A stretch of DNA of 63,956 nt, counting the filler, from Psammoneis japonica (lineage: Eukaryota), in the NCBI GenBank assembly GCA_008632985.1. It is 3 parts of 3 records of this genome, joined end to end, with 100 filler letters (N's around TTAATTAATTAA, not from the genome) between each part and the next. Parts side by side here need not be neighbours in the genome. Positions count along the whole stretch, not along the records: positions 1 to 26,671 come from QPGO01000419.1; positions 26,772 to 53,197 come from QPGO01000421.1; positions 53,298 to 63,956 come from QPGO01000523.1. One strand, 5' to 3'. Shown here one piece after another: positions 1-63,956 of this stretch. Both the position numbers and the translations under genes were made by a program. The stretch's first letter is position 1. Each line of letters opens with the position of its first letter. The notes beneath the pieces were generated by a model. The model did no database searches and was not told the origin of the DNA. It saw only the letters and a program-made list of their open reading frames with translations.

Positions 1-1828
1 GCCCGATTCCAAAAAAAGCAGAAGCGATTCGCGCGATCGCAACTCCCAAAACTCGCAAGGAATTGCGACGCTTCATCGGTGTGATCAACTGCTGTCGAGA
101 CATGTGGCCTCGACGATCTCATGTTTAGCTCCTTTAGCCAAACTCACTTCTACCCAAGTAAAGTGGCAATGGACCGAAACAGAACAAAAAGCCTTCGAAA
201 ATATGAAGCGCATCATCTCCAAAGACATGCTGTTGTCATACCCGAATTTTAACATACCCTTTGAGATATGGCCGATGCTAGTAATTCTCAATTGGGGCGG
301 TTATTACTCAGAAAACCGACCAATTGCCTTCTACAGCCGCAAGCTGAATGGAGCGCAGACGCGTCATGCTACAACGGAAAAGAACTATTGTCCATAGTGG
401 AGACGTTAAAAGAGTTCCGCAATATACTGTTTGGCCAACAGATAAATATATATACGGATCACAAAAATCTCACACACAAAAATTTCACAACGGACANGAG
501 TCATGCGTTGGCGTCTAATGATAGAAGAATACAGTCCCAAAATAATATACCTTGAGGGCAAGGCAAATGTTGTCGCAGATGCGATTAGCCGACTTACTAT
601 GAAGAAAATAGAACCTATGGAAACCCTCAGCACAGAAGAGCTAGCTGAAAAGGTCCCACCAAAATCCTGCGACAATGTCTTTCCGTTAAATTACAAAGTT
701 CTTGATTATGAACAAAAACGGGACAAAGACATTCTCTCCCAATTGTCGAATAAGACGTTTCATACGAAGACTTTTCGTGGAGGCGAGCGAGACCGGTTGC
801 TCACATGTCATAAGGATAAAATTGTCGTCCCGAGGACGTTACAAAAGGCAGTGATAGATTGGTGTCATACGCACCTTCTTCACCCTGGCATAAATCGAAC
901 AGAAGAAACAATCTCACAACACCTGTGGTGGTCCACCTTGCGTGAAGACATACGAAAATACGTGTCGAGATGTGAGACGTGCCAAAAATTCAAAAAGAAA
1001 CACAAGAAATGTGGACATTTACCTCCTAAGTGCGCAGAATCCGCACCGTGGGAATGACCATGTGTGGACCTTATTGGGCCATACAAAATACGTCGTAAGG
1101 GAAAGAAAAAACCCCCAGTCCTGAAATGTTTGACCATGATCGATCCAGCAACCGGATGGTTTGAAGTTGTGGAAATCCCAAATGAGGAGTCCACAACTGC
1201 AGCTGGACTGCTAGAACGAACATGGTCAAGCAGACATCCTTGGCCATCGTTGGTCACATGTGACCGTGGAAGTGAGTTCATCGGACACCAATTTAGAGAA
1301 ATGGTGCAAGATGATCATGGCATTAAAGTCAAGCCCACAACTGCACAAAATCCACAAGCAAATGCAATTGTTGAATGCGTGCATCAAGCACTGGGGAACA
1401 TGCTCCGTACATTTGATTTGCAACATGCACCTCTGGACACTGAGGATCCTTTCGCTGGAACACTGTCAGCGGCAGCGTTTGCGGTGCGTTCTGCGCATCA
1501 CACCACTGCGCAAGCTACACCAGGACAACCAGTCTTCAACAGAGACATGACATTTAACGTCCAACATGTCGCAGACTGGAAATCAATCCAGCAGCGAAAA
1601 CAAGAAATCACAAATAAAAATGACGCTCGAGAGAATGCTCGACGCACTCCTTGCATGCACAGAGCAGGAGAAAAGACACTGCTCGAGAAAGACTCGCAAA
1701 AATTAGAACAGCCCTGTGTTGGACCGCATGCAACAACAACGGCACATGCCAATGGCACAGCACAGATCAAACGCGGTAACATCATTGACACTGTCAACAT
1801 TCGTCGAATGATGCCGTTTAACGACTGA
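1..1828 (+). mobile_element. Ty3/Gypsy LTR retrotransposon (family A), 3' part of pol: RT end, RNase H, integrase; degenerate
   Basis: Consecutive frameshifted ORFs carry RNase H motifs (ADASNSQLG, PIAFYSRKL, ELLSIVETLKEFRNIL, IYTDHKNL), the integrase HHCC region (HPG...CETCQ) and core (DLIGP, DRGSEF, NPQANAIVE). Domain order RT-RH-INT is Gypsy. Confidence 0.93.
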
Positions 1829-1854
1829 CTCTAATGTGCAATCAGGGAGGCAAA

Positions 1855-2234
1855 TGCAATGTGCGTTGTCATGCACGCATTACACATGTGTGTCTGTGTG
1901 TTAAACAAAAGTGTGTTTCAATCGTGTGTCAATCGTGGGTTCGTACAAAGTGCAGATCAGTCACACAGAAGTGATCGGATGTCGAGAATCGCAAATGCGA
2001 TCGTACGATGATGTTGACATCTCATGTGTCAATGTCAATCGCATCCGGACAATCTGTCGTCACGATCACATTCTCCGAAAGGCCTTTTGTCTGTGGGAGC
2101 AGTGCAAAAGGTTTGGGCCATTGAGAACCCGTTTGGAGAAACCCAAAATGATTGCGTAGAAACAATTCTCATAATTTTCACCTTTTTGAACTTCATTCTA
2201 CTTTCGTTTGCACTCGTTCTTCGAGCATGGTGCA
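1855..2234 (+). repeat. 3' LTR of Gypsy family A, TpA-depleted copy, preceded by purine tract AGGGAGGCAAA (1844-1854)
   Basis: Starts TGCAAT just after the integrase stop and PPT. Aligns over about 380 bp with the reverse complement of 54721-55099. Confidence 0.88.
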
Positions 2235-3529
2235 AAAGTCCTCCCATCCCTGCCAACTGCCTGTCCCTAGAATCAGATCACCGCAAGAAGTCGCACGAGC
2301 AAAGCGACGCCAGTCGCTGGCCTCGTAAAGACCGACCAGGGGAGATGACCTCATCACCCATTGATGACGCACCGGGAAATCACCCCCCGCATCTGCCACA
2401 TTGAACGCGTTCAAGTTGGCATTTTGGAAGCGAGCTGCTGTTGCTCATTCTTCCGAAGAGCTTTAGCAGCAAGCCGAACAGACAGTCTAAAAGCGCTCCC
2501 ACCTCTCCCTCCCTCTGGCCATGCCGTTCCAGCTTGGGAATGGAAAGGGACCAACTACGCTGGTAAAGTCCTCCCATCCCTGCCAATTGCCTGAAAATCA
2601 CTCGCCACCATGACGAGTGCCGCCGACGCGCCGTCGTGCAGCTCCACAGCCATTTCGTATTTTCCAATGCGGTGCCACCAACGTACTGCGTGACTCTTTT
2701 ATCTAAAATCACTAGCTTCAATGTTGTCACAGAATGCCACAACCATTTAAAGCAAGGCTTCGGAAAACGAATGGCAAATCTTCTGGGGTCAAACACAGTC
2801 ACACTCGATTGTGACCTCAAAACCCTTTGTTCGACCATTGAGTCATGTGCAGCTTGCAAGAATGAGATCTATACATGATGCATGGAAAGTTTTTGTTGAG
2901 CTGGGTTTTGCACCGGAAAATGTGCATTGTGTGTCTCTTGCTACACCCGGTCCATCGCGTTGAGAGGTTGTGACGCGATGTTGTGCTGCGCGGCATGCAA
3001 CACCGAAACGAATGAATTTACGACGCACTCCGTCCATTTTGAGCAGCGTCACCATGGCATTGGAGCAGTTCAAGACTCTGTCACTCACACAATCACTCCT
3101 CCGAACCCCAAGATTGATCCAGTGTGTCATCCCATGCGAAACAAGGAGAGCCCGGATCAACTCTTTTGAGTCAAATTAAATGACATCTCAGTTCATCAAA
3201 AGGTTCAAGATTCCGCATCCTGACCTTTGATGGATGTAAAGAGGATGACAAAGTTGCTCTAGTTTCAACTGTTCGGCCTGCTTGCTCACAGGAAGAATGG
3301 ACTGACGAAATGAAAGAAGCGCTCAAGAAACTCTTCAAGCGCAAATAAAGTCCGATTCCAATTTCAAGTTACAGTAAAGCTTCATAGGGGTCTTTCTGTC
3401 CAGGTGCAGGCAGTCCGCATCTTCACAGACAAGCCTGTTTTGCCGAGCCCCTCTCCGAGACAGTGTCCAAGTCATTGCGCCTTTCATGCGGGTCAGAAGT
3501 CACCCGACAAGGAATTTCGCTGCCCATCC

Positions 3530-4834
3530 TTGCAGCCAGTTCGACATTGTTCCAATGCACTCAATTGCTGTTCATCTACATTGTTCACATCACAACCTAA
3601 AACCGAGTGTCATGGAATGTACGCAACACTTGATTTGAATGTCGGAACAATTGGCACAAGCTCTGGGTCTCGCACTGGGATTGGACGCCGACGCACTTGA
3701 CCATTTTGTTTCAGAAGGATCCATTCCGCCTGCTCAAACTCACATCCAGTAGATCCACACAACCACATGATCCAGAACAAGATGCCAGTGGTGTCGATGC
3801 TCGCACGGATGCAGGATTCTGCACTTTGCTTCTTCAAGATCAAGTGGGAGGCTTGCAAGTCAATCTGCTTCTAAATGGAAACGACTGGATCAATGTTCCA
3901 CCCACTGGACCCGACATGGTGGTTTGCAACCTGGGCGAAGTTGCCGAGCTTGTGAGTGGCCGGCATCTCTTGGCCACACCACTCTGTGTTGTGATGTTGC
4001 CCTGTGACAAGGCACGTATATCCATTTCCCGTTTTTTTTTTACAATCCGATAAACGCTTTCAGTTTTTCGAAATCGGGCAAGTGGGGGACTGCGGTACTG
4101 AAACAGCGTAGAATTCTACGTATCGTACTTCGCCGTGTTGTAAATCGAAATCACGTGGTGAAAGCACGGTGAAACTGACAAGTGGCGGAGAACGTCCAAA
4201 TGCTAATTGGAAGGAAAGTAACGTTATCGAGCTTGTCCTAGACACATGTTATCCAATGTAAATAGAAACTTTCGTTGAGAAACTTGTTAAAACAAATGTT
4301 TTGGACAATTCCCAAGTTCACCACGGTGAAGCACGGGAAATCACTCGCCAAATTGCCGCGCAAATCGCTGGCAATTATCTAGCGATACTTTATAGAGCTA
4401 TAATCAACGAATAGCTTCCATTCCGACATCGAACTAGCACAACTTATTGTAAGATATGTCACAGCACAACTGTCATTTAGTCAGAAGCAGTTGTGGCTTT
4501 CCACCGTGCTTTCGTCGTGCCATCAATTTTATAACACGGTGAAGTATGTACGTAAATTCATACCAGGTTCTACTGCAGTCCCCCATTTGATCGACTGAAA
4601 GCGTTTATTCTATCGGCCGTTGTGATAAAACAACTCCGTGTCCATGATGACTTGTGGGAATGCTCCAGAGACAAACGTTGGAATCATCAAGCTGGAAACG
4701 TGATGCATTCTCATTATGGAAAGAACGCATTCAAGAGCCCTGCACGATCTCATCCACGAGTGTTTTCGGAGCATCACGCAGACTTGGAAGTGTTGGAGAA
4801 TGGCAGTGTTGTGAAACAAGAAGATGCAACATGA
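3530..4834 (+). pseudogene. 2-oxoglutarate/Fe(II) oxygenase (IPNS-like) pseudogene interrupted by a MITE
   Basis: Motifs RTDAGFCTLLLQDQVGGLQV, WINVPP, VVCNLGE, LATP, FFYNP on the left and YGKNAFKSPARSHPRVFSEHH on the right. The metal-binding HxD is degenerate (RTD). Start is approximate. Confidence 0.72.
4051..4607. mobile_element. MITE / foldback-like non-autonomous element (about 557 bp)
   Basis: Perfect terminal IR TAAACGCTTTCAGT...ACTGAAAGCGTTTA, plus matching subterminal blocks (GGGGGACTGCGGTA/TACTGCAGTCCCCC; GAAAGCACGGTG/CACCGTGCTTTC). Removing it restores the oxygenase frame (YNP-ILSAVVIK). Confidence 0.85.
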
Positions 4835-4881
4835 AACACACAAGACAAGCAAGTAGCCGCTACTCTTCCCTTACGCTCTTT

Positions 4882-5917
4882 CTAGATTCGTAACTTTGGA
4901 TCCCCGACCATCGGCTTGAGCTTGGCTTGCCGCGACATTTGCGCGTTTAACCTGCCTCTCGATCCTACGTGTGCTGCCCCGGAGGAAGATCCGCTACCAT
5001 GCCTCACCGTTACCGAGTGCGTGCTCTTGCCAGGAATTGGAACAAGCTTAAACTTGTAAACTTTTGGTCCGTCGACACTTGGCTCATACGTGTAACCGGT
5101 GCATCGGTACAAGCCTTCATAATAGTATTCAGGCTTTCCATCTTCACCTGTGGATCGTCTCAATAAGCGGATCGGATCTCGAGTCGACACAGATGAAATG
5201 AGTGACGAATTGGCTACATTCTCCTCTTGATCTGTCACATGATGCTTGCCTTTTTACCTCCCGATCCAGTGTAAATGACCGATCCGTCGGCTTGACGATC
5301 ATTGTCGTCCACATATCCGCCAGACAAGCAAACCGCATAGCACGCCTCGTCCTTGACCGAGTCAATCCCAGAAGGAATCTGGGTGTGAATCCCCAGAATC
5401 GCGGCTTCACCGCGACCTTTCAACTTGATGCCGATTGGGACTCCCTCTATTTCCCCATGGCGACGACGAGGTGTCCATGTGTTTCGCAACTCCTTAAAGG
5501 CAACCATATCGGGTTTCTTCTGCTCAGCCTTCTCCAGTTGATTTAGTCTCTGGCGGAACTTTTGTAGTGCTTCGGCCGCACGACCCGTGCATTCAAGTGT
5601 ACCGTCCTGCTGCTGTTGCTGCTGCTCCTCCAAACGCTCTTGTTCTTCTCGGTATTTGTTAAACACTTGTTTCCACTTTTGTACAAGGCCTTGGCTTTGG
5701 ACCCAACAGTTGCGTGCGACTTTAACTTTCTAATCACAAAAACCACCTCGCTGTCCCTCAGCCATGGATACTCCACGTCAAGCTCGTCAAGCCTCTGCAG
5801 ACAGTCTTTAACAGATTCGACCACCGTCTCGTCGTTGATGGTATCTTGATTCTCAATTGCTTTTTCAAGACGTTCCTTTAGAATCTTGATGGTGGATTCT
5901 GTATTTGGTGATGACAT
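4882..5917 (-). CDS. SRA/YDG-domain protein with an N-terminal TFIIS-N-like helical domain
   Basis: Three frameshifted ORFs. SRA motifs HGEIEGVPIG, GRGEAAILGIH, SGID, AVCLSGGYVDDND, IYTGSGG, PIRLLR, YYYEGLYR. N-terminal LQRLDELDV...LRDSEVVFVIRKLKSH resembles TFIIS-N. Confidence 0.82.
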
Positions 5918-6269
5918 GTTCTGTTGAAATATATCGTATGGCAACAAAAGGACAGAACGCAGAACGCAGACCAAATAATAGAGGACGGCTCACTTTTGGC
6001 TGCTAAAGGATAATCGAATCCAAAATAAGATAGATGGATCTACGACAGAGATGGCGTTTTACAACTCTGACAACAACACACTCTTGGCAGCAACAACAAC
6101 TTGAGGCTCGAGGTGACGTGAAGAAGCAATGTTGGAGATCGTGGATCGTGGCAGATCATGGCAGATGCGAGAGAGGCAGATCAGAACGCAGAACATGCGT
6201 GCGATGATGACTTGAGCGAACGAGGTGCAGGCGGGCTGCACAATGCTCACATACATACATACATGCAGT

Positions 6270-7490
6270 ACACGGACACCTTTTTTTGGTGGACAAGGCC
6301 CTCCATCCACAACTGGTGCAGCTGATCGCTCAGCAGCAAGCAAGGCCCACAGCAGCTGGTTGCAAGGAAACCGAAAAGCAAAGGAGAGAATGCCTGTTGT
6401 CGTTCTTGCATTGCGTTCTTCATGACACCCTGACACACTGCTGGATCGGGGAAAAGAAGAGAGAGAGGGCGAGTGTGAAAAAGCACTGCTGCACTTTGTG
6501 TTTCTCCTGTCTTGCAGTGGCTGACACTGAGCTGCATCTGACATTTGTGTGTCTGCAGAAGAACCATTGAGGAGCATGTCTCTGAGCTGTGTCTGCTCTG
6601 CCCTGCATGAAGAAGAACACTTGTTGGATCATGTGTGTCGTCAAATGACAAGGAGAGCTTCTTGGGCCTCCGTGTGTTGCTTGTGGGTCATGTGAGAGTG
6701 CATTGATGCCGGGGACTTCAGGACAGGCTGACCAAACCTGGAGCTGGAGCCACCAGCTGAACCTGCTGATCTGCAAGATGGTGTGCTGTGCAAACAACCC
6801 AACTCAGGGGCAGTGGGAGGTGTGGCCTGCAAGATTTGCCAGGACAGAGGCCACCCAACTAGAAAGAACTTGGGCCATGTGCTTGCACTGGTCTTGGGAC
6901 ATTGCATGCAGCCTTGCTGGGACAATTGAGCAGAAGCCCATCAGGATTTGGTGGGCATTGCTGGTGGAAATGCCAGCGCAATCTGACAGGCAGCTTGAGC
7001 TCATCCATCAAAGCTGCATGACAGAGAAGCAAACACACAAGAGCCCAGCACACATGACGATTGACTCCAAACATTTGTTGCCAGCATTCCACCAATCTTG
7101 CCACATGTCAAATGCAGACTGTTGTGACAAGGCATGCAACCTTGTCAGCATGGCAGGGATGGAGATCATGGTGGAACCTTTGCTGATGCTGCACAAGGTG
7201 CAGGCAGGCATGGGGGTGAACGCAGAGACCTTGCAAAAGACAATACCAGCTTCTCGCTGTTGTGAGAGGAAACCCAAAAGCAAACAAAAGAACACCTGTT
7301 TTGGTTGCACTGCATTCTTCATAACACCCTGATGCTGGATCGGTGAAGGGAGAGGAGGGCGAAATGCTGCTGCATCTTACAGATGCTCTGCTCACAGACT
7401 GCTGACTCCTCTTCCATCTCCATCCGATCTCTGCTCACTCCAGCGCACGCTCGCATCGCCAAAACTGTTGATGAAAAATGAGCGTCAGCA
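6270..7490. repeat. Degenerate TpA-depleted repeat or TE relic of unknown family
   Basis: Only a handful of TA dinucleotides in about 1.2 kb. Overlapping Cys/His-rich, Tyr-free ORFs with no recognisable domain. Confidence 0.5.
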
Positions 7491-7681
7491 CTTCTAAAAT
7501 AGAAATGTCTTCGCTCTCTCTACTCTAGCTAGCTAGAGAGAGAGCAGCTACTCTAGCTACTAGCTAGAGAGTAGATAGTAGGTGTGGCGATGGCTGGCTG
7601 GACAGTGGACAGGCTGCAGCTGCGTGTGGTGGATGCAGAGGTTGGAAACCCAGCATTTTTTCAATTATCACATTACTATAT

Positions 7682-9372
7682 TCAGTAAACGGCCCTCCCT
7701 CCAGTGCATCAAAGCAAAAGCCAGTCGTAAAGGCGGCTTCCGGAGAGGCAATGAAAGCAACTAGACTCGCTATCTCATCAATCGTTCCACACCTCTTCAT
7801 CGGAATTTTGTCAGTCATGTACTTCACCTGTGCAGCAGGCATGTCTTCCACCATTTTCGTCTTTACTACAGCAGGTGCAAGAGCATTGCAGGTGATGCGG
7901 TCTCGGCGTATTCTTTTCCAATCGTCTTTGTTAAACCAATCACGGCCGCTTTGCTGGTAGAGTAGGCTAGCATCCCTGCGTTACCCTCCTTCCCGGCAAT
8001 GGACGCAATGTTCACTATGCGTCCATAACCGCGATCCTTCATGTAGGGAAGCACAGCTTTGCATCCATTGAAGATACCCTTGACGTTGACACGAAAGACG
8101 GCGTCAAAGTTGTCAGGATCAACGTCTTCAGTCTTGAGGTTTGTTGCTCCCACAATTCCTGCAGCCTGCACTAGAACATCGATACGACCACCGTTGCCTT
8201 CCGCAATACTCCTCCATGCATGAGAAACCGCTTCAGTGTCTGTTACATCGCAGACAACGGCGTCAAACTGACAACATGAAGCAACGTGCTGCAGATTGGA
8301 GCACGCTATGTTGAGCGTGTCTTGGTCCAAATCAACAATCGTAACACAGGAAGCTCCCTCCAGACCAAGTCGAGCGGCAATGCCGTACCCGATTCCACGA
8401 GCACCACCAGTGACAATGCACGTCATGCCCTGGAGGCGACCAGAGAGCAATGGCTTTGCGAGCTCAGTAACTTTTTCTTGTAGTGGTTGCTGAGGTTCCA
8501 CAATCGGTGTAACCAGCGTCCCAATACCGTCAATCTCGCACTCGACGATGTCACCAGGTACAAGCCATCTTGGAGGATTACGAAAGCACCCCACTCCTGG
8601 AGGCGTTCCGGTTGCGATAATGTCTCCAGGATATAACGTCATGAATCTAGATATGAATGCTATGAGCGCGTCAACCTTGAAGACAAGTTCTTTTGTCGAG
8701 GAGTCTTGGAGTACCTCACCATTGACACGGCACCGAATTCCAGTATTATGAACACTTTCAAGTGTCATTTCATCTTGAGTGATAATGACTGGACCAATCG
8801 GAGCATATCCATCTACGGCTTTTCCGAGCAACCATTGACCTCCGTTCCGTTCAAGCTGCCAATCTCTTGCCGAGACATCGTGTACCACCGTGTAACCGCC
8901 AATGTGATTCACAGCTTTTCTCGTGGTGTATTTCGAGGAACTGTCGTTCCAATGACCACACCAAGCTCCACTCATAGTCAAGCTTTTCGGTCGTTTCGTC
9001 TTTTGATACCGGATCACCTGGTCCAACCACGCAAGAGCCAAATTTCGAAAAGACCAGCGGTTCTTCTGGAATCGGAACATTTTGTTCAGTGCAATGATCA
9101 ACATAATTCATTCCAATGCAAAGGAACTTTCCAACGAGCGACCCGTCAAGCGGAGCAAGAATACGACAATCTTGTGACCGCACGTACAACGGGCTTTCAG
9201 GAGTGCAAGATTCAATGAGAGAGTTTGCTCGAGAAATCGCTTCCGGTCCAGCAGCCAAAAATGCTCTTGCATCAGGAGAAATCGACGAAAGGTCACAGTA
9301 CCCTTCAGCATTTGGGATCTGAGCGGCGAGTTTCACCTTGCCGAGGTGGGCAACGCTTGCGAGACGGACCAT
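7682..9372 (-). CDS. Fumarylacetoacetate-hydrolase-family domain fused to a short-chain dehydrogenase/reductase
   Basis: FAH motifs CIGMNYVDHC, EPLVFSKF, LDYE, HDVSARDWQ, GKAVDGYAPIGP, PGDIIATGTPPGVG continue in one ORF (7866-9104) into SDR motifs TGGARGIG, GRIVNIASIAGKEGN, YSTSKAAVIGLTK. The C-terminus is FTTGFCFD.GGRAVY. Several single-base frameshifts. Confidence 0.88.
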
Positions 9373-9506
9373 GGTGAAGCGTATCTTCGGATTTTCGCAA
9401 TCGCTGCTGTTATCGCTGTCCCACAAGATTGCCCATGTTACACTGCGCGTTCAGCGTGAAGCGCGCGCCAAAAAAGCTGTGACAGACGTCAATCTGGAAA
9501 TCGGAT

Positions 9507-9643
9507 GATGATGTCAAGAAGTAGCAACAGCACGACCAAAACATCAAACATGGCTTCGGTTCCTATTTCTTTCGCGCAGATGATGTCAAGAAGTAACAAC
9601 AGCACGACCACAAAAGCCATAAGTTTCGGTCCCTATTTCTTTC
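9507..9643. repeat. 72-bp-period tandem duplication in a divergent promoter region
   Basis: GATGATGTCAAGAAGTA(G/A)CAACAGCACGACCA...TTCGGT(T/C)CCTATTTCTTTC at 9507 and 9579. Confidence 0.8.
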
Positions 9644-9649
9644 TCTTAT

Positions 9650-10345
9650 ATGAGTGAAGCAGAAGCAAGAGGTGTTGGCAGAGCAGCATTGTCATCGAAA
9701 GGAGACGAAGGCGGTGCCACTAAGAGCGCGCATCATGATGAATGGCAGCAGAATTCAAATCGAGGGTGGGATTACATGAGCTTCTACTGGACATTTGGTT
9801 TAGCTATTGGCAAGATCTTTGGATATCTACCGCTTCAACCACTGCTGCTGCATGACAATGAGGATACCCTACTACACTTCACTGCTACTTTGGTTGTGAC
9901 CGCAGCCGCCCAACCCATCATTTTGCGTCGTTACGGTCATTTTGGTCGCGAATTCGATGTCGGAGCTTTCCTTATCTTCCCAATTTGCAATGGCATTTTT
10001 GAAACGATTCTCTTTTTTGCGTCGTACGACGTCGGAAAGTGGTTGTCACAAGTTGCTTTTGGAGTAGAATCAAACCTCTGGATAGCTCGCGGTGTCGGTT
10101 TCGTCACGTTTAACGTGTACTCGGCTCTCATTCACGCACTCTTCTGGCTTCGTCGAGCATTACCGCGACACACGTTGCCCGACGCATCTCCATTCCATCA
10201 ACAAATGCTTCCTGCCTTGTTGGTTGTTAGCATCTCGTGGCTGGCCTGGTATGAATTGCAAGGCACTGTGGCGGAAGTTTGCCTGTTACACGGTCTTGTC
10301 AATGCTATGTACGTGGTAAAGATACGTCTACCTGGCCCATTTTAG
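9650..10345 (+). CDS. Hypothetical multi-pass membrane protein (231 aa)
   Basis: Uninterrupted ATG-to-stop ORF with normal Tyr content and several hydrophobic segments, followed by AATAAA. Confidence 0.65.
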   Translation: MSEAEARGVGRAALSSKGDEGGATKSAHHDEWQQNSNRGWDYMSFYWTFGLAIGKIFGYLPLQPLLLHDNEDTLLHFTATLVVTAAAQPIILRRYGHFGREFDVGAFLIFPICNGIFETILFFASYDVGKWLSQVAFGVESNLWIARGVGFVTFNVYSALIHALFWLRRALPRHTLPDASPFHQQMLPALLVVSISWLAWYELQGTVAEVCLLHGLVNAMYVVKIRLPGPF

Positions 10346-10619
10346 CCATTTTCCTTTTCAATAAAGTAATTGTTACCTTTATAGCATGGTAGATAAATGT
10401 GATGCCTACAGTATCGACATTACTCTGTTACTTTTCACCTTGCAAACTTTGCCTCTCGCGTGCCGTGCCATTGTACACTGACTTTTTCCGCGTTCACATT
10501 GTTTTCCATCAAACTTGACTTTGTTGACATTGCGATAGATTCTAGATCGATCCGAGAGAGGTGAGTGATCAAGCCAATGAGCATGTTGCACTCTTTGTGA
10601 AGAGGGCATCACACTGGCT

Positions 10620-33560: not shown

Positions 33561-33599
33561 CCCACCACACACAGACCACCAAGGTCTGCATGGAACAGG

Positions 33600-40400: not shown

Positions 40401-40479
40401 CACTCCTTTGCCAGCTAGGCCGGCATTGGCTGACCCACACTTCCAGCACACCATTGAGTGTGGCAGAAGCTGACGGGCA

Positions 40480-53297: not shown

Positions 53298-55099
53298 GCC
53301 CTCCTTTGGTTTCCCAGAGTTTGGTGGCGGATACTTTGGTTCTGAGTTTCCGCGTGAATTTGCGCAAAATTATGGTTGACAATGTTCCGCTATCGAGGAG
53401 AACGCGTAGAGGCTTATTTTTCGCTTTACCTAAAGAGGTATTCATATAAGCGACGACGACTGGACTAGCATGAGTTATCTTGGCCCTTTTTCCGGGCTTC
53501 CTAATATCCAGTAGTGCGTAAGACTCCTCTTGCGGTGCAAGTCATTCCTCAGAATCGCTGCGCGTCAATTTTTCAAACTGATAATTCTCCTCGTCAAGGG
53601 TATCAGAATCATAATCTTTGCTCTTGCGCTTTTCATCGTTGTTCGAAGAACTCGCTTTGAGTAATTTTTGAACTGCTTGGACTGCCATAGCATTCAACTC
53701 TTCTTTGCGAGAGGCGTTATCGTTATCGCGACGAGACCACATGCGATTGCCATTTGAACGGCGCCATTTTGGGTCGGGTTCATAGTTCCCACGGCGTTCT
53801 TTTGCAAGTCTTTTAATCGACCAGCACTTGTCCGTATTATGAGTGGATTTTTCGCATAGAATGCACCACTTGTCGGACTGAGATTTTTCGGTGCCATGTT
53901 GGTGACCATTTTTGGAACCACGCTGGGAACCACTCTTGGCTTTCGATCCAGCACTACCACTGGGATCAGCCTTGGCATGAATGCCATCGAATACATCCTC
54001 AGCGACCTCCAGGCGCTCCAAAAACTCAACCAACTCGTTCAAAATTTCGAAACCCTGGACAGTCGACTGGCGCTGCCACTTTCGAGGTGCAAGATTGAAG
54101 AGGATATCCTTGAGCTCGTCCTCCTCGATCTTCTGATCCTTCCCAAAGGGAGGATAGAACTTGAGGTCTTCGTTGACTTCCTGGACCCAAGCAGCAATCT
54201 CGCGTACTTTCATGGACTCGGGCTTCTTGAGATCGCGACGTAGATAACGTTTCTGAACCGAAAGTGCGTTCTTAGGAAACACATGTTTCGTGAGGTGCTG
54301 TAGGCATTTCTCGAAGCTTCCTTCCATAGATTCGTCTTCAACATTCACCGCTGCATTCTCAAAAGCACGTAGAGCGTCTCCTTGTAACAACACACACATG
54401 AGACGGAACTTATCGGCTTGCTTACTGATGTTCTGGCCCACTAGAAGTTGATCGTAGCTCTTTAAAAATTCGATGTACTTGGGAACGCCCTGTTTCTTGT
54501 AGCACTCGACGTTAATCGTGTAGGTCCGACTATCCTTCTTCTCCGGATGAAAACACTGCTCCATCTTGAGACACTGGCTCGGTTTGAGGCTCTTCGGCTC
54601 GGAATTCGATTCCAACGGTTGAGGAACGATTCTTTCCTGCCTTAACGAAGTCTTGGCCTTGGTTGCCTGAGGTGAAAGCTTCATCTTGAACTAGTTACCT
54701 TCTGTGGTGTGTACACACAATGCACTATGCTCGAAGAACGAGTGTAAACGAAAGTAGAACGAAGTTCAAAAAGTGAAAATTATGAGAATTGTTTCTACGC
54801 AATCATTTTGGATTTCTCCGAACGGGTTCTCAACAGCCTAAACCTTTTGTACTGCTCCTACAGACAAAAGGCCTTTCGGAGAATATGATCGTGACAACAG
54901 ATTGTCCGGATACGATTGACATTGACACGTAAGATGTCAACATCATCGTACGATCGCATTTGCGATTCTCGACATCCGATCAACTCTGTGTGATTGATCT
55001 GTCCTTCGTACGAACCCACGATTGACGTACGATTGGAATATAAATTTATTTAATATATAGATATACATATATATAACGTACATAACAACGCACATTGCA
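53298..55099 (-). mobile_element. Ty3/Gypsy family A, 5' part: 5' LTR (54721-55099), gag (53542-54684), start of protease; TpA intact
   Basis: LTR homologous to 1855-2234. The 380-aa gag has QKRYLRR and a CILCEKSTHNTDKC knuckle. Protease motif LLDSG follows. Confidence 0.9.
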
Positions 55100-58000
55100 C
55101 GGCGATCCCGCGGAATGTTCTTTTGATTCTTTCTTTTCCACAGAAATTCTGTTCTTGTTATGTAGGAACGTTGCTGGGTTCTTCTTTAAGTGCACATCGT
55201 GTAAGGGAACATCTTGGGACTTCTTAGGAGGTCACGTATGATGTTCGAAGGTATCACGGGAAAAATCGAGAGATCCGATTCGCTCTTCATCGTTTCGACC
55301 GTTTTCTTGTGAGGATCGGATTGGCTGAAAGGGAACTTGAAGTTCGGCTAAGAAACGTCCGATCGTTTTACTATCAGTTGTTCCACGTTTACTTATGAGC
55401 TGTCCCACGTGTACTTAGGAGTCTTCTTGATTTACTTAGGAGGAAGATGTTGGATAATGGTTCATGTAGTGTGCATGTGTCTCTTGATGTATGTTCACGA
55501 CGTAGATGTGGATTGGTTCTGTCCGTAGTTCTCTATTGTTCTTTATGACGCCACAAAGTGTCTGGTCATGAGCACGACGTGACACGCGCCTCCTCCAATG
55601 AATCGCATCAGGGAGAGAAGGGAACGAGTCGCCGTGTATTTACGGTCTCAAGGTAATTTCCTTTTGGGATGATGACGGTGCCATTGGATTTTACTTCATG
55701 TATCTCGCACGGGCCAAGTCGGCGTAAGGCGAGTTTGGATCGACGAGGGTTGTCGTTTCGGAGAGAAACAAGGTCTCCTACTTTGAAGTCATGGTCGAGT
55801 CGCCGAGAGTTCTCACGCGCGTTATCTGCTTGTGCTTGTTGTCGGCGGCGAGCATAAATAGTCGGCCAGTGGATGTTGCATTGCAAGGGCAGGATCATAT
55901 CGCGTCCAAAAGCAAGTTGGCCGGCAGAGGCTTGCATGACAGTGTGTACCGTCGAGTTTATTGCCCAAGTTGCTGAGGCTAGTGTCGCATTCCACGGATT
56001 CGGTTGATTAAATACGTCGGGATCATCGACTTGTTGAGCTCGTATGCAGCTCCATAAAACATCGTGGGTTCGTTCAAGTAATGAATTCGCCTGTGGCTTC
56101 TGCACTGTTGCAGGTTTAGACTTAATCCCATAAGAAATTAGTAGTTCTTGAAATTCAACACCTGTAAATTCTGTACCGTTGTCGTGTGTGCAATAGACCG
56201 GGCGCGGGAATTTACATAACCATGCTTGGTCGAATGCTCTGGCTGTTTCCAGAGCTGAGACTGTGGAGATCTGTTCCATGCCAAAACAATGAGTAGCTAG
56301 ATCTGCCATTGTAAGGGCGGTCAACGTCAAACTTTGTCGGTTGACGCCGGTGCCAGCAGTAAAGGTAATCGGTCCGACGGTGTTGACTGCCACCTGCAAC
56401 CAGGGGTCAATCTCAAGGGCTTGTATGTCCTTGAGAGGTGTTTTTCCATACACTCTGTGGTTCTCTTTGGACCTTATACAGGTCTGGCATTGGTCTGTCT
56501 TAGTCTTGACGTCTCGGGTCAGACCTTGCCAACAGCAGCACTGTCTGAGGGTCTTCCATCCATTGGATGCCTGGATGGCACAAATTGACATGATACCAAT
56601 TCAGTAGAGGTGCTTGTAGAGTAGTAGGGATAACAATCTTGTCCTTAAAAAGGACCAGGCGCAGGTGTCCATCCTGCACCATGCAACTGTAGTCAGATAA
56701 TTCTTTCCGACTCGGGTCGGTACGAGTAAGTTGCAATACTTTTTTGCACACAGCATCATCTTGCTGTGCTTCAACAATCGTGTCAAACGAGATAGGACTG
56801 TGAGTGTTGTCGTCATATTCAAAGGCGAAACACTCTTCCAGCGTTGGATCTGCAGCTGGCATCTCTGGGTCGCTAGTCGTGGTTGCGGCATGGGACAAGA
56901 AATCCGCGAGCACATTTTTTGCTCCCGGCAGGTAAAGAATCGTGGGACCAAACTCCTCAACAATCAGCCGCCAACGACACACACGGTCTGATTTGAAATT
57001 TGCAAATGTCAGATTCTTGTGGTCCGTATAAATCGTGATCCTATGACCCAACAGGATGTCACGACACTCTCGTAGCATCATAACTATCGACAGTAGTTCT
57101 CGTTCGATGACGGGATATCTTTTTTGCGTGTCGGAGAGTTTGCGGGAGTAGAACGCTATCGGGTGCTTGCCTTGAATGACAACGCTGCCTAGCTGGCATT
57201 TTGAAGCATCGGTGTAGATGTAGAACATCTTGTTGAAATCAGGGTAGGCAAGAAGCTCGTCTCTTAATTTCTTGAAACGCTTGCTTGTGTTCGGGTTTCC
57301 ACTCAAACTTGACTGCTTTTGAGGTCATGCTCGAAAGAGGTGCCAATAGATGGGCACGAAGGCGCCACATTTCGCGATAGAAGTTTATCATTCCGATGAA
57401 ACCTCTGAGTTCTTTCTTTGTTTTGGGCGAAACCAAATTCATAATTGCGTTGACCTTTTTCGGTTGCGGTTTGATTCCGTCTCTAGTAATAATGAACCCT
57501 AGGTACTCCGTTTCTAGAGCGCAAAAGAAAGTTTTTCGCAAATTTACTCTAAAGCCTGCATCATTCAAAAGCACAAATACTTCACGCAATTGGGCGAGGT
57601 GATCATCAAAGGATCCCTTGCCAATAATCAACAGGTCGTCAATAAAAATCAGTGCGAATTCCAAGTGTCCTAACAGGTCAGTCATGACTTCTTGGAATAT
57701 GTCTGGGGCTGGTGCAAGTCCCATTGGTAATCTGCAGTAAGCATGTTTGCCAAACGGCAGCACAGTAGTCAGACACTGCTGACACTTCTGGCTGATCCGT
57801 ATTGAAAAAAATCCCATGTTCAAATCGATCGCGGTGACATAAGTGTAGCCGTGTAGCTTTCATAGCATGGTTGGTATTAAAGGTAGAGGCCACGGGCGTT
57901 GTTGTATGCATTGATTTAAAAGCCGAAAGTCGGTGACGAATTGGCAATCACCACCTTTCTTCGGTATGAACATTGAAGGAAATCCCCAAGCTGAGTCTGA

Positions 58001-61000
58001 GATCCTTCTCAGAACTCCTACTCGGCATAATCTCTCTACTTCTTCTTTTGCCATGTTGTAGTTGATCTGTGGTATGCTGTAAGGTCGGCACATGATGGGC
58101 TCGGTGCCGGGCTTAAGCTCAACATTGACCGGTGGTTGCTTGACGTATTGTCCGAGCTCTCCTTGCGTGAGACTGGAGAAGTCTTCTAGCAAGGCGATGA
58201 GAGCTTCACCTTGCTCTCTTGACAAGTGGTCAGGCACACACTCCCTTAAGTCCTCTATAGGACTATAGTCATTCGGGCGAATAGCTTTGGCCTTACGAGC
58301 CGCCATAAGCTCTTCTCGCGTCGTCGGTTGGTGCCAAAAATCCTCGGGATATCTCATCAGAAAGGACAAGTCATCCCAAGTAATGACTTTTTCTTGGAAA
58401 TCAAGCTTCATCCCAAGCTTGAATAGGACATCTCATCCCACTATAGCATCATGTAGATTCCTTGTAAGGGTGAAATGTAAAAGCATAAATCGAATTGTCG
58501 GTGCAAGGATACATCAAGGAATCGACAAAACGAGCAAGCACAACATGAGTTGTCTGATGGGTCTGCGCAAACAAGGTCTCCCACCTTGTTGGTGCTAGGG
58601 TAGCCTTATCCAGTGTGTTCCTTTTGAGAGCACATCTCTCTTTATCATTGTTCGACTGCTGCCGCTGTCGAGTGAGGCAAGTAGAACATTGTTGCTTTTG
58701 TCTCGAGTCCCATCAACTGGATCGAGTAGTTGAAGTCGCACGATACATCCGGGGTTCTTCCACTTATGTTTTTGAGGCTTTCGTGCTGCGTGTCTTTTCG
58801 GCTTTTTGTTGCTACTTTGCTCTTCTTCTTGTTCTCTGACATGGTCAGACATGCCATCTCCAAGGACTTCTTCCTCTTGGTGGAACCAAGTATGACACTC
58901 TTCATCATCTAGGTACACTGTGCCAGGTTCACAATGAAAAAAATCGTGATCACTAAATGCACTCAAATGCTCGTCACCATCACTGTGAGGATCTGGGTCA
59001 GGCATTCGTGCTGCTGGTTGTGGCTCAGGCGCCACGGCTGGCATAAGTTCATGCGTCATGTGCATACTCTCTTCATCGGTATCGGATTCTGGAGCTGCTG
59101 ACATTTTCCTGTCGGACTCGCTATTCATAAGTTCGTCTGCCGACACAGCTCGCTTCATCTTAGATGCGGTTGCTCGAGGAGAAAGTGAGCGACATTGCTC
59201 ACATGTGTAGGGTTCGGTGTCTTCGGACGTTTTCGAATGTCCTTCACCTTCTTCGAATTCGTCTGGGTGACCTGGAACACACAAGCCCCTTCTCGTAGGA
59301 TGTGTGCCTCCATGAGGGAACACTGCGTAGTCGCAATCGTCCATTCCATCTGGATACAATGCCTCTATCAACTCCTGGGCGTCCGTGCTGTTGTCATCTT
59401 CAAAAATTGATGACGTCAGAGAGGCGCGCTCGTCTGCGCTGTCTAGCTAGGGCCCCTACAGGATCGTACGGTACTCGTCATCGGCATCTTCTCCAAAAGA
59501 TGACAGCTCGTCCATACAGTAGACGACATGCGTAAGGTTGTCGACGATACTGCTGACATGCTACTGTCGGTACTCCACAAATCATCGCTGTCTGTCGATG
59601 TTGATCCGCCGTGTGGTACAAGTTCCGGCAGGCTGGATTCATCAGTTGTTTCTGCTGTGGATCCCTGTCTTTGTTGCAGCTCAAAGTTTTCTGGCAACTG
59701 AACGCAGTAGTTCTCCCTCCACGTAAGTATCACATTCTCCGTCTGATTCTTCATAAGAATAGCTCGTATCGTCTTCCTGTATCTCAAGTCCGTCTTCTTG
59801 TTCGTAAGGTTCGGGTTCAGCACCATCTCTTATGCTAAGTAGTTCCAGTTGTTCAGCTGGGGCTGTGTCTGTACTATTGTCCGGGTTCTGGACTGGTGGA
59901 GCTTCTTCTGGCTCGTTCACGGCACTTATTTCTTGCCGGTTCGTTCGGGTACGTCCTCTCTGTTGACCATAGCCTTGAGGACGGTTCCTATCACGCTGTA
60001 AGTTGGCTTGGTATCGAGTAGGATATCGATGTGGTTGGTTAGGAGGAGCTCCGGTGTTGTTGTTATTGTTGTTGCTTGGTCGTATCGCTCGGTCGCCTCC
60101 ATGTCCGTATGCGGTTCGGTAGCCGTGAGTGGGGGTACGTCTCTGGAATCGCCGTTGGTTACTTGACAACCTTCTCTCTTGTTGGGCCTTCTTCTTCTGT
60201 AGGAAGGATTCAATGGTGGAATAGTATGTCTCCAAGTCTGCCATACCATACTCACCTCTGTGTCCGACGGATGGTTGGAATTTCTCGCGCCAATCATCTG
60301 GCACAGCGTGCTCTGCTGCATAAGTCAACTCTTGGTCGGTGAGAGGGGCTCTCTCTTCTGCAGAGCCTCTCATGTAGGGTACTAGCTCATTGATTTCCGA
60401 AACTCTGGAGGTGAAATCAATGAAGGTAGACTCTCTTGGCTTGCGCGTGGAGCGCAAGTACTGTTTCTGTGCCGCCGCTGAGTTTTGCGGAAGCAATCCA
60501 GCAGTGACGGTCTCTACTGCTGCATTAAATTGTTCTGGGGTAAGATCTTGTGGGTCTTCAACTAGAGCTCTGACAGCTCTTTGGTGTCGGTCCTTTATAG
60601 AGCCTTTGGTTAGGCACAGCATCTGGCAATGGAGGACTGGTCCGGTAGTCCAGTGCTTGAGCTTTCTTAGCTCATGAAAGTTCTTCAAGAACACTAGGTA
60701 CTTCTCCTTGTTGGAGGTATCACACTGATGGATGTGGAATGCCACAGTGTCTTCCGGGTCTTCCGGGTCAGGCGCAACCTTGTACTTGATTAGGTTCGCA
60801 ACGTCGTCCACTACGTTGGGGTACGACTTATATAACTTCACAATCGCTTGACTAGTCATGTTCTCCTGTACTGTATAAGTATTATCTTGAGGTAATGCTC
60901 TAAAGTGCTATTCTTCAGTTCCGTTGAACTGGGGGCTACGTACGTAGGCTTTCTTCGCCTTAAGTAGAATGCTCAGTGCTTTGCTGAGAGACGGCATTGT

Positions 61001-61616
61001 CACAATGATGCGCCACTGTTTGATCAAAGTGTCATGTGGCACAAGGCCTATTGTGGGTGATTGTGGTAAATTTAAGAGTCGTTCATGAAAAGTGAGACTA
61101 TAAAAGTGTAAAATTATGAAGTGAACTTCTGGAGCGGCGATCCCGCGGAATGTTCTTTTGATTCTTTCTTTTCCACAGAAATTCTGTTCTTGTTATGTAG
61201 GAACGTTGCTGGGTTCTTCTTTAAGTGTACATCGTGTAAGGGAACGTCTTGGGACTTCTTAGGAGGTCACGTATGATGTCCGAAGGCATCACGGGAAAAA
61301 TCGAGAGATCCGATTCGCTCTTCATCGTTTCGACCGTTTTCTTGTGAGGATCGGATTGGCTGAAAGGGAACTTGAAGTTCATCTAAGAAACGTCCGATCG
61401 TTTTACCATCAGTTGTTCCACGTTTGCTCATGAGCTGTCCCACGTGTACTTAGGAGTCTTCTTGATTTACTTAGGAGGAAGATGTTGGATAATGGTTCAT
61501 GCAGTGTGCATGTGTCTCTTGATGTATGTTCACGTAGATGTGGATTGGTTCTGTCCGTAGTTCTCTATTGTTCTTTATGACGTCACGAAGTGTCTGGTCA
61601 TGAGCATGACGTGACA
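55100..61616 (-). mobile_element. Near-complete Ty3/Gypsy family B: 5' LTR about 60998-61616, gag, PR, RT, RNase H, INT, PPT, 3' LTR 55100-55584 (interrupted by family A)
   Basis: gag 59681-60859 (QKQYLR); LDSGSS; WGFPSMFIPKK, LPMGL, FIDDLL; TDASK, IAFYSRKL, YTDHKNL; HDNGTEF, QANSLLER. PPT GGAGGAGG precedes TGTCAC. The LTR copies match over about 485 bp. Confidence 0.93.
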
Positions 61617-63956
61617 AGCTTCTGGAACCAGTTTCGTGCAGCAGTTTTCGTGCCGTATGTTCTTTTTCAGTTTGCACACCATGTCTGGCATGATGTTTCC
61701 ATTGTCGTCTTTCACTTCCCACCCTTCTGGGAGTCTCACACACACTGGTTCTTCCAGTTCTGCTTGTGGAAATGCTTGCACATAATCCACTTGTCTGCTT
61801 TTCAGACCGGTGAGTGCTGCTAGACACAATGTCAGTCGCACCGTACTCCATGCGACGACTGGGGCGAATGTGTCCCAATGGTCTATTCCATGTTGTTGTT
61901 TGGAACCGTCGACGCATGTTCTAGCTATGTGTATTTAAAGCTCACCACTTGGTTTCCTTTTTCTTTTGTATGACCAGATTGCATTTAACAACTGGTGGTC
62001 TTTTGGCACTTCAGAACGTGGTATGTATTCCCATGCGTCCACATATCTGCTAGCCCTTGTATTTCTGGAACTTGGGCTTTTTCAAATTTGGCGTGGTCTG
62101 GCGCTCTTTTCATCTGGCCCTGGGTCAGGGTATCAACGTTACCTAGTGCCGCTGCTTCAAAAGCGAGTGGACTGGATTCGTTCCATATATTTTCGTCGAG
62201 AAGTGTGTCATTATCTACTGAACCCATAAGTGCCATCAGATGTGCGAGCTCTTCATATAATTCAGCTGCAACTTCTTTATGGTATAGAGGCATTGTAATG
62301 TACGCATTCGCGTCAGGTAAGTTACTGTTTTTCGTATTGCTCTGTACTGTTGTGCAAGTCGCGTCGTCGTCATCTAAACCTTTTCGGCGTTTGTATTCAT
62401 GAAATTGATGACGAGCATAGTCTGCTTCATCGTTTAAATGTTGGAGGGCTTCTTTCATTGGAAAAGAAGTTGCAGCATCCTCTAGAGTTGCCACAGTTGG
62501 GCCCTGGGTGACTGCATTGTCTACAATCAACTGTGTCGCATTGTCAACCGACAGCGGTTGGTTTGACAATGAGTGGGTCCCCTCTGCTCTCTCCGATATA
62601 GAACCTGCCGCTACAGGTGGCACAGCCTCAGAGGTTTCAGTGTGTGCCGATTCTGCCAGTGTCGTTGCATCTGCTGGTGCAGCTGCCGCATGTGTCAGTG
62701 TGTCGGCCGAGACATCAACAGCTGGCAGAATCTCAGATGGTGCATCATCATCGTCTGGCTTTGCTTGTCCAGCACGGTCTCTTTTTCTCCCTCGCAATTT
62801 GTGATTGGTCTTTTGCGCCTGTTTGTACACTTGAGGGTCGATGCCGTGTTCGCGGAGCAAGTCGTCCTTGCTCCAAATGTTCTTTTCAAAATGATGTCGA
62901 TTGTGATTGAGACATTCATCATGGTGAGTCCAAGTGTTTGCATGGTCATTAAACAATTGTTCAAGAGCTGCCTCAAGATCATCGCTTGATGTCTTTCCAG
63001 GCGCCACAGTTGCAAAAATTTCGTCGAATGTGACGTGAAATTGTGTCGAGACGTGTTTGGTTATGGGGTCCCACACCAAGCAGACATCACTGGCATGGTG
63101 ACGCGTTCCAGCTCTAGGTGGGACCTTGCACTGCTGCACTGTGACATCAACAGTTTTTTGGATCACGTTGCATGTCGCACACGTGCATTTCTACGTGTCA
63201 TGTTCTACAAAATTGTTTCATGCTCCCTGTTTTGCAAAGCCAAAGGCTTTCTATTTTCCCCATTTGTGACAATAAAAATGCGCTGGGTGTGTTCTTTAAT
63301 GTCTGAAGAATGCACCCGAGCAAACTGTCAATGATGCACTCCAAGCATGGAGGAGGAGATACGTTCGTAAAATTGCCTCTTTTTCTGTTGGCGATCATTT
63401 ATATTTTCATTGCAGAACAAATTTGCTGCGGAGCTCGCACGTAGAATTCCACTTGCCCAATGTCACACGGAGTCCCACCCAGGACTGGAACCCATCTGGT
63501 CCAGTGAATGTCCCACGTACACTCCTTGGCGTGACCGTTCGGCCCACCTTCCGATGTGAGTCCCATCTTGGACACTTTTGTCCGCGATGTAAACAGGACA
63601 CCCCCACACGCGAAAATCGTCCATTTGAAATGGCGGTTTCTCATGGGTGAACAGTTCCCAGGGGTTTTTCTCTTTTCCTTTTCGGATGCACACATCATGG
63701 AAATTGACGGCTTGTCTGATGGCAAATGGCCACAATTCCAAGGTTGCTACATCAGACCAGAGGGACTGAGTGTGTAACAGGTGCATGCGCGCCATGGCGG
63801 CCAACATGCCGTTATGGGCATGAACGGGCTCGATTTTTATGTCACATTTTGCTGCAAATCTCTCAAGCTTGGTTTTGCCATTCAAGGTCTCTTTTCCTCC
63901 AGTGGACTCTTGCACACAAGGACAGATAAATCTAGAGAAGTGATCAATCCATGGAG
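61617..63956 (-). mobile_element. Ty1/Copia retrotransposon fragment (integrase, linker, RT start), interrupted by Gypsy B
   Basis: LWPFAIRQAV, PWELFT, FRVWGCPVY, GVYVGHS, VSTQFHVTFDE; RT VDGSKQ.HGID.WDTFAPVV.WSTVRL, QVDYVQAFPQAEL, KLKKN.YG..TAARNWF. Order INT-RT is Copia. Confidence 0.9.

Follow-up and report, generated by a model that had tools for sequence, protein, structure and literature searches.

The stretch of DNA analysed here, called the window, is a 63,956-nucleotide sequence of the diatom Psammoneis japonica (assembly GCA_008632985.1). It consists of parts of three records joined end to end (QPGO01000419.1, positions 1 to 26,671; QPGO01000421.1, 26,772 to 53,197; QPGO01000523.1, 53,298 to 63,956), and it holds a series of domains, several of them recognisable as transposon relics, from which the dinucleotide TA has almost disappeared. 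Expressed as the ratio of observed to expected counts (o/e), TA was at 0.37 over the whole window (1,560 against 4,240.6 expected), and CA and TG were each at 1.44. Within the eight multi-kilobase strong domains (26,644 bp), the TA o/e was 0.07, against 0.60 outside. The near absence of TA from such domains, reported in the preliminary description of this DNA, was thus reproduced, and the depletion is confirmed as real and far beyond chance. The TA-poor domains lie at 1000-2150 (21 TA observed for 77.5 expected), 6270-7490 (4 for 70.1; CpG-poor, o/e 0.27), 10620-17700 (42 for 481.5; also CpG-poor), 21280-23830 (5 for 163.2; CpG 0.14), which fills the gap between two host genes, 26772-30420 (32 for 229.4), 32650-43400 on the plus strand (45 for 610.6), the largest of all, and 46980-50600 (14 for 199.9; CpG 0.87), with a further patch at 62480-63100 on the minus strand (8 for 36.8). 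A weaker TA-poor zone, absent from the preliminary description, covers 2150-3950 (31 for 115.6), beyond the end of a Gypsy element named A hereafter. The rest of the window outside the listed domains keeps 1,356 TA for 2,269.9 expected (o/e 0.60). TA steps have a median spacing of 17 bp, yet the longest runs free of TA measure 1,500 (21601-23101), 1,023, 979 and 902 bp. Besides, two 44-N runs 12 bases apart occur at 26672-26771 and again at 53198-53297; those of the first pair (26672-26715 and 26728-26771) adjoin the left edge of domain 26772-30420.

The loss of TA is visible in the codon content. Among the stop-to-stop open reading frames (ORFs) of at least 100 aa located in the strong domains, 82 out of 95 are devoid of tyrosine, and the residue composition is 0.12% Tyr, 5.4% His and 5.6% Cys. 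Outside the domains, none of the 57 ORFs of this size lacks tyrosine (2.7% Tyr, 2.9% His, 2.8% Cys), in line with the earlier statement that host genes keep their TA and their tyrosines. Because TGA supplies most of the stops in the domain ORF set (1,178 of 1,342), the domain ORFs are long by chance.

Regarding dinucleotide specificity, CA was raised to an o/e of 1.65 in the strong domains (1.21 outside) and TG to 1.73 (1.17 outside), CG was lowered to 0.43 (0.94 outside), and the remaining 12 dinucleotides stayed within 0.86-1.16 of their outside value. TA itself was at 0.12 of its outside value, with ratios of 0.86-1.10 for ApA, GpA, ApT and TpT. From the domain counts, about 861 TA and about 880 CG are missing, compared with about 1,650 extra CA and TG; therefore two processes, TpA loss and CpG loss, feed the CA and TG pools. 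On the plus strand, CA and TG are about equally frequent in every domain, for instance 778 and 772 in 10620-17700 or 1,169 and 1,073 in 32650-43400. Strand-coordinated bursts were also considered and set aside, no extra clustering of CA versus TG being detectable over 500-bp windows (strand dispersion 1.91 in TA-poor DNA against 2.10 in normal DNA). The TA that are still present in the domains are enriched in the context YTAR (Y, pyrimidine; R, purine), with CTAA 5.7-fold and TTAA 3.1-fold, and none is found in ATAT or GTAT, which suggests that a TA followed by a pyrimidine could be the better target.

These figures bear on two alternative origins. The first dispenses with any special mutator and attributes the domains to the composition of foreign DNA, to selection against TA or to GC-biased gene conversion, and the G+C content, 50.7% in the domains against 46.2% outside, goes in this direction. 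However, AA, AT and TT are unchanged, although biased conversion would remove them as well, selection cannot act so completely on dead sequence, and relatives of the same families keep their TA, as described below; an origin of this kind is barely conceivable. The second, put forward in the preliminary description, is an error-prone repair synthesis in which a polymerase of the Pol eta type, once brought to the domains, wrongly inserts G opposite T at WA sites (W, A or T). Pol eta is known to make A-to-G changes at WA, as in somatic hypermutation, and both strands would be hit, as observed. Yet WA includes ApA, for which the o/e was 1.27 in the domains and 1.17 outside, while TpA went down to 0.12 of its outside value. 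Since ApA is not depleted, the specificity is too sharp for a WA mutator of this type, which is considered improbable.

The nature of the domains was addressed by a Pfam scan of the 248 stop-to-stop ORFs of at least 75 aa that overlap them (E up to 0.05). Only rve, weak RVT_1, RVT_2, SH3_retrovirus and 2OG-FeII_Oxy matches were obtained; no viral gene turned up in the scans of domain ORFs, and no match was returned for ORFs of this size in 6270-7490, 10620-14600, 21280-23830, 26772-30420 and 46980-50600. The preliminary description had equated the domains with relics of transposable elements. As judged from sequence, this holds for a Gypsy integrase, a Copia relic, a reverse transcriptase (RT) element and an element with inverted ends, and it does not extend to the five domains without a Pfam match. 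The 3' part of Gypsy element A, with an integrase core at 1058-1825 (rve, E 1.6e-10) and an end resembling a long terminal repeat (LTR) at 1855-2234, underlies domain 1000-2150. The largest domain, 32650-43400, can be assigned to relics of an RT element: its ORF 32711-34138 matches the C-terminal domain of RT polyproteins of 1,000-1,360 aa, and its ORF 35950-36792 on the plus strand has homologues at E 1e-75, including proteins of Fragilaria crotonensis and Cylindrotheca closterium; it is a reverse transcriptase whose family occurs in diatoms. The Copia relic around 62480-63100, on the minus strand, carries RVT_2 at 61578-61934 and SH3_retrovirus at 63466-63954. Finally, the element at 14800-16594 has inverted ends (14818-14932 and 16462-16575) that are 87.8% alike in purine/pyrimidine code.

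Two further elements serve as comparators. Gypsy element B (55100-61619, minus strand) is full-length and undepleted, with 285 TA for 439.7 expected (o/e 0.65), RT, RNase H and integrase domains, and LTRs (55100-55587 and 61135-61619) that are 97.1% identical. Copy D, the 5' part of an A-family Gypsy element at 53545-55099 on the minus strand, also keeps TA (o/e 0.58) and has an LTR-like end at 54721-55099. In the minus-strand nest 53545-63956, Gypsy B interrupts the Copia RT (RVT_2 61578-61934) and, on its other side, abuts the LTR-like end and the gag-like ORF (53545-54690) of the A-family copy. Of the 14 differences between the two LTRs of Gypsy B, 6 are exchanges between TA and CA or TG, five TA having been lost from the LTR adjoining the Copia relic and one from the other. 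A spread of TA loss into Gypsy B was examined on this basis and dropped, five against one being too small a number.

Direction of change was assessed in the conserved codons of two coding regions. The integrase core 1058-1825 was aligned with 120 database homologues, giving 197 conserved columns, 66 of which are changed; 19 of these 66 are single steps from TA to CA or TG. They comprise Tyr to His (CAT/CAC) four times, Tyr to Cys (TGT) once, Ile to Thr (ACA) six times, Val to Ala (GCA) six times and Leu to Pro (CCA) twice. Only one of the ten conserved tyrosines is kept, and three of the four conserved histidines are kept, none of them reading Tyr. In RT ORF 35950-36792, 39 conserved columns are changed, 6 by TA-type and 10 by CpG-type steps (Arg to Gln, His or Cys, and Pro to Leu), and tyrosine is absent, compared with 2.2% in the homologues. 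As a control, all 78 metagenomic loci of the same RT family keep TA (o/e 0.27-1.02). When the thresholds for TpA-poor DNA of a preprint on the chlorarachniophyte Bigelowiella natans were applied in 1-kb windows (TA at most 0.43, CA+TG at least 1.52; Mettrop et al., bioRxiv 10.64898/2026.01.13.699255), 4 of 583 windows passed in these loci, against 46 of 121 here. A codon check of 31 metagenomic RT relatives found 19 without any TA-type change and a maximum of 4, against 6 here. Taken together, the integrase codons, the RT codons and the TA-keeping relatives argue that the loss is mutational and polarised from TA to CA or TG. This is the reverse of the fungal repeat-induced point mutation (RIP), as the preliminary description had it; the composition (TA 0.07, CA 1.65, TG 1.73) and the conserved histidines, which have not turned into tyrosines as RIP would make them, are in line with it. 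A few environmental RT copies show a partial signature: only loci L046 and L040 pass the thresholds, both with low CpG; L025, L035 and L019 carry 4, 3 and 2 TA-type codon changes; and L025, L019, L035 and L046 combine low CpG with either a TA o/e of 0.30-0.41 at CA+TG 1.63-1.67 or codon changes. As an indication of the signature in other organisms, these loci were judged too weak to support a claim.

Duplicated sequences within the window give access to the mode of the change. Aligned over 1,161 positions, the two tandem copies at 46771-47934 and 47937-49097 show 98% identity and 23 differences. Eight TA stand in the first 225 bp of the left copy, which lies at the domain edge, and none of them remains in the inner, right copy (five became TG and three CA); over the remaining 940 bp both copies have the same 3 TA. 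Only 7 of the differences are neither TA- nor CpG-type. As a rough estimate from this pair, TA loss would have run at least about 400 times faster than the background and well over 10 times faster than CpG decay. The background divergence of the Gypsy B LTRs is similar to that of the tandem copy that lost all its TA, and the fate of TA was the opposite; therefore residence time alone is not the explanation. In the internal tandem 16023-16150 and 16188-16315, 78% identical in bases and 97.7% in purine/pyrimidine code, 16 of the 28 differing bases form eight exchanges of CA for TG, each of which can be read as one ancestral TA resolved differently in the two copies. The LTR-like end of element A (1855-2234) shares 89% identity with that of copy D (54721-55099), or 98% in purine/pyrimidine code; the former has 7 TA and the latter 29, and 21 of their 41 differences are single exchanges between TA and CA or TG, and two more make up one CA-TG swap. 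Across the edge at about 43400, the inner copies of a tandem array have 4 and 3 TA compared with 13 and 8 in the outer ones. Moreover, a domain edge cuts through element A itself (o/e 0.66 over 1-1000, 0.28 over 1000-2234) and the low-TA zone continues past the end of the element. These comparisons support a mutation acting on chromosomal DNA in place and depending on position. The earlier claims that homologous copies differ by both TA-to-CA and TA-to-TG steps, marking both strands, and that the process operates at the DNA level, are borne out.

Such observations leave little room for an editing step before integration, whereby RNA would be edited by an ADAR-like enzyme, or minus-strand cDNA deaminated, prior to insertion. 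Several domains are retroelement relics, and the integrase changes are mostly T to C in the sense strand (Tyr to His four times versus Cys once; Ile to Thr six times versus Met never), as such a step might produce. On the other hand, CA and TG are about equal on one strand in every domain, in-place duplicates have diverged by CA-TG swaps, all 8 TA of one sequence are gone from the copy inside a domain and intact in the copy at the domain edge, and a domain edge cuts element A and continues past its end. An element with inverted ends is also affected, and allelic CA/TG differences are seen (see below). Editing before integration is accordingly very doubtful, as the preliminary description had argued from the marking of both strands; the dependence on position adds to the misfit.

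The sequence was also compared with another public run, X1, which contains 81% of sampled words of 17001-26000 and was used in the form of contigs. X1 contigs of 4,484 letters on 10251-14731 (16 other letters) and of 1,396 letters on 21895-23276 (9 other letters) reproduce the TA-poor sequence. Over 6601-26600, X1 and the window differ by about 0.4-0.5% even in host genes, for example by 8 letters in 1,559 over 7725-9280. Since it differs in host genes too, X1 represents another haplotype or strain. At position 18267, two X1 alleles are present at a depth of about 60 each. The counts that follow rest on the 40 differences listed out of 434. Among these, 23 fall within 10620-17700, 10 of the 23 being TA-related, and at 11535/6, 12024/5 and 17156/7 the window has CA and X1 has TG, a pattern that independent hits on an ancestral TA would give. 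An artefact, with CA or TG entered in the assembly for a genuine TA owing to a base modification or to the polishing chemistry, has in its favour that neither the assembly nor X1 has its platform on record and that X1 possibly comes from the same sample as the assembly. Against it, X1 contigs covered to a word depth of about 60 carry the TA-poor sequence too. Sites that read CA in the window and TG in X1 are not what an artefact would produce, the changes are accompanied by ordinary CpG decay and stop codons in ORFs that are dead, and the boundaries are located between genes; this origin is thus most improbable.

Run X1 also informs on copy number. The word depth is about 58-66 over 10603-14604 (about 63) and over 21275-23275, the same as in host genes, and these regions are therefore single-copy now. 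Over 14605-16605 the depth is 2,094-8,620, compared with about 60 for single-copy DNA, and 280 contigs are at least 99% alike. The element with inverted ends at 14800-16594 is itself TA-poor, and its family may have lost TA first and multiplied later, which could be a form of escape from a TA-directed mutator. The preliminary description had proposed that the process is aimed at repeats. No support was found for this aim, given that domains at single-copy depth are affected and the full-length Gypsy B is not depleted; with regard to a trigger by duplication, as in RIP, these depths speak to present copy number. What the data support is confinement to certain, probably silenced, domains. A second run, X2, is RNA-like: two GT..AG introns, at 24400-24497 and 26297-26373, are skipped by its contigs. 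Its depth is nil over 10603-15271, 16606-17272 and 21275-23275, with values of 0.34 and 9.1 in the two bins between. As missing contig cover proves nothing, these gaps were not counted as evidence of silence.

TA loss and CpG loss are correlated over 500-bp windows (r = 0.61), which raises the question of their relationship. Five TA-poor 500-bp windows (38001, 47001, 47501, 48501 and 49001) have nevertheless kept a CpG o/e of 0.84-1.27; in three of them (47001, 47501 and 48501), the TA o/e is 0.00-0.12 with CpG at 1.08-1.27. Conversely, one CpG-poor window (44001, CpG 0.23) has normal TA. The latter falls within 43400-46700, an AT-rich segment (G+C 0.32-0.41) with tandem repeats at 43285-43931 and 45118-45577, a TA o/e of 0.72 and a CpG o/e of 0.68. 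As this segment keeps TA at low CpG, CpG loss without TA loss occurs directly beside the largest domain. Hence, CpG loss is a second process, separable from TA loss in both directions, and the distinction from the decay of 5-methylcytosine (5mC) that had been drawn earlier stands. Deamination of 5mC at CpG does share with the present signature its products, TpG and CpA; it is active in most TA-poor domains (CpG o/e 0.43), and the Arg-to-Gln, His or Cys and Pro-to-Leu codon changes of the window RT are of this type. However, it cannot remove TpA, and in tandem 46771/47937 all 8 TA are gone where only 8 of about 80 CpG sites differ.

Some neighbouring genes deserve mention. A 2OG-Fe(II) oxygenase fragment without tyrosine lies at 3634-4050 on the plus strand (PF03171, E 1.7e-12) and overlaps the right end of the weaker zone 2150-3950. 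The aligned His of its HxD motif reads R and the distal His reads L; with these iron ligands lost, the fragment is a pseudogene, possibly a host gene caught by a spread of the mutator. The host gene at 4885-5989, on the minus strand, sits between two TA-poor zones and encodes a SAD/SRA domain distributed over two ORFs split by an intron-like gap; its N-terminal region bears a weak likeness to TFIIS/LEDGF. Methylated cytosine is the usual target of SRA domains; the location of this gene does not imply a link to the mutator. The host FAA-hydrolase/SDR gene at 7869-9107 finds its closest named relatives among raphid pennate diatoms (71% for Nitzschia inconspicua, 69% for Pseudo-nitzschia), with unnamed proteins reaching 82%. 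On this basis the window was placed in a raphid pennate diatom, and the diatom origin assumed in the preliminary description holds.

From the above, a process confined to particular domains turns the T:A pairs of 5'-TA-3' steps into C:G, giving TG or CA equally. Its pace exceeds by far that of ordinary substitution, and also that of CpG decay, and it comes to a halt at most a few hundred bases from expressed host genes. With time, more than 90% of TA is lost, and with it the codons for Tyr as well as those for Ile (ATA), Val (GTA) and Leu (CTA/TTA), which permanently kills the coding capacity of transposon relics. We propose that a TadA/ADAT2-like deaminase converts adenine to hypoxanthine in 5'-TA-3' on either strand, and that this enzyme would be recruited to silenced chromatin, or given access to it, and not drawn to repeats as such, which would make it the diatom counterpart of the TpA hypermutation of integrated viral DNA in B. 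natans. Adenine deamination is favoured because it is the simplest route to an A-to-G change and because TadA/ADAT enzymes act on an A that follows U. Mutation of TA steps in place, combined with adenine deamination of this kind on silenced chromatin, is the best explanation overall, and we put its chances slightly above even. Adenine deamination is also the sole mechanism proposed by the B. natans authors in the accessible text of their preprint, where an ADAT2-like candidate is named (bioRxiv 10.64898/2026.01.13.699255).

Several points weigh against this proposal. An A-to-G change on one strand is a T-to-C change on the other, and a chemistry directed at thymine fits the sequence equally well. 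The deaminase is a candidate, CpG loss is the only sign of silencing in the domains, and a transposon origin is unproven for five of them. The context of the surviving TA may be blurred by new TA arising from other mutations. The element at 14800-16594 may owe its TA-poor state to a master copy already poor in TA, and not to changes at this locus. Finally, the differences seen are fixed, or were scored against one other run (40 of 434 listed), and are not de novo events; the platform of this run, X1, is not on record, and it may come from the same sample as the assembly.

The first of these points can be given a concrete form: within silenced chromatin, an enzyme would modify the thymine of TpA, for instance by a TET/JBP-type oxidation to 5-hydroxymethyluracil (5hmU) or 5-formyluracil, and the modified base would mispair with G or be misrepaired, producing T-to-C changes on either strand. 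By symmetry, the resulting sequence pattern is identical, and the context preference can equally be read as RTA over YTA. Moreover, mispairing with G is a property of 5-formyluracil, and in dinoflagellates 5hmU shows an enrichment at TpA. The window does not discriminate between the two chemistries, and adenine deamination is the only published proposal, as far as the accessible text of the B. natans preprint goes; a thymine-directed route is regarded as unlikely. If the process is the one described in B. natans, adenine (or thymine) in DNA would have an editor of natural origin that is strictly specific for TpA. Such a process would also explain why much diatom repeat DNA escapes homology-based annotation, and it would bias the dating of transposable elements by LTR divergence as well as estimates of mutation spectra.

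When compared with known systems, the process resembles fungal RIP in being regional, restricted to transitions and specific for a dinucleotide, and in killing transposons while sparing adjacent genes. It differs from RIP in direction, RIP converting CpA to TpA and thereby enriching TA, and in its requirements: RIP needs duplicated sequence and a premeiotic stage, whereas here single-copy domains are hit and a 6.5-kb Gypsy element is not. With ADAR and APOBEC3 it shares deaminase-driven, clustered transitions that disable mobile elements. These enzymes, however, act on RNA or cDNA before integration and on one strand, whereas both strands are marked here, after integration. TadA, from which adenine base editors are derived, and ADAT2-ADAT3 deaminate A34 of transfer RNA, which always follows U33, i.e., in a 'UA' context; their natural action on domains of chromosomal double-stranded DNA is unproven. 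The B. natans preprint states that ADAR, too, favours U before the edited A, and it cites reports of DNA editing by ADAT2 in amphioxus and trypanosomes (bioRxiv 10.64898/2026.01.13.699255).

The closest likeness is with B. natans. According to the accessible text of the preprint, 231 of the 302 new nuclear substitutions of mutation-accumulation lines fell in two integrated viral regions, 230 of these 231 were A to G or T to C, all on TpA, and the rate was about 6e-7 in the viral regions compared with 3.5e-10 elsewhere, i.e., about 1,000 times higher (bioRxiv 10.64898/2026.01.13.699255). The new mutations of B. natans appeared during culture, in some of the lines only. The same work describes 124 TpA-poor, CpA+TpG-rich clusters, with RT and DDE domains enriched among TpA-poor genes, and it suggests a possible role of the process in genome defence (Mettrop et al.). 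As far as that text goes, the two cases share changes restricted to A:T to G:C and to TpA, giving TpG or CpA depending on the strand, a confinement to regions of foreign origin, outside which the genome is normal (foreign origin being established here, from sequence, for four domains), clusters poor in TpA and rich in CpA and TpG, and hypermutated regions that can be single-copy. All the features of the B. natans signature that lend themselves to sequence analysis, namely the A:T to G:C polarity, the restriction to TpA, the regional character and a rate that, by rough estimate, lies orders of magnitude above background, were found in the window. The preliminary description had presented the signature as undescribed; in view of this preprint, it is not new as such. 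A literature search on the signature, which did not cover most subscription journals, returned only the B. natans preprint and nothing for diatoms, and the word diatom is absent from the accessible text of the latter. The present case comes from a second eukaryotic supergroup lineage and is in a far more advanced state. The host is a diatom (Stramenopila) and not a chlorarachniophyte (Rhizaria), the identifiable targets are transposon relics instead of DNA of nucleocytoplasmic large DNA viruses and virophages, and the depletion is much deeper, with an o/e of 0.03-0.09 here against a Rho of 0.45 in the viral region of B. natans; CpG decay joins the loss of TA here, and the evidence is comparative where that of B. 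natans consists of de novo mutations. To the preprint, the window adds a process that is nearly complete and is separable from, and faster than, CpG decay; its edges are sharp to a few hundred bases, a resident full-length Gypsy element is spared, and TA followed by a pyrimidine seems to be preferred.

If the process is the same in both organisms, it is present in two distant lineages of the SAR group (stramenopiles, alveolates and Rhizaria), one of which includes genetically tractable and ecologically dominant phytoplankton, and the enzyme could be sought by comparing genomes with and without the signature. A broader view, held tentatively and with somewhat less than an even chance of being right, is that diatoms and chlorarachniophytes share an enzyme-driven defence that deaminates TpA in silent foreign DNA, on both strands and in place, independently of copy number and of CpG methylation, until no tyrosine codon, TATA-like motif or TAA/TAG stop is left, and that some elements may escape it by multiplying in a TA-free form. 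Such a defence would be the mirror of RIP and possibly ancestral to SAR.

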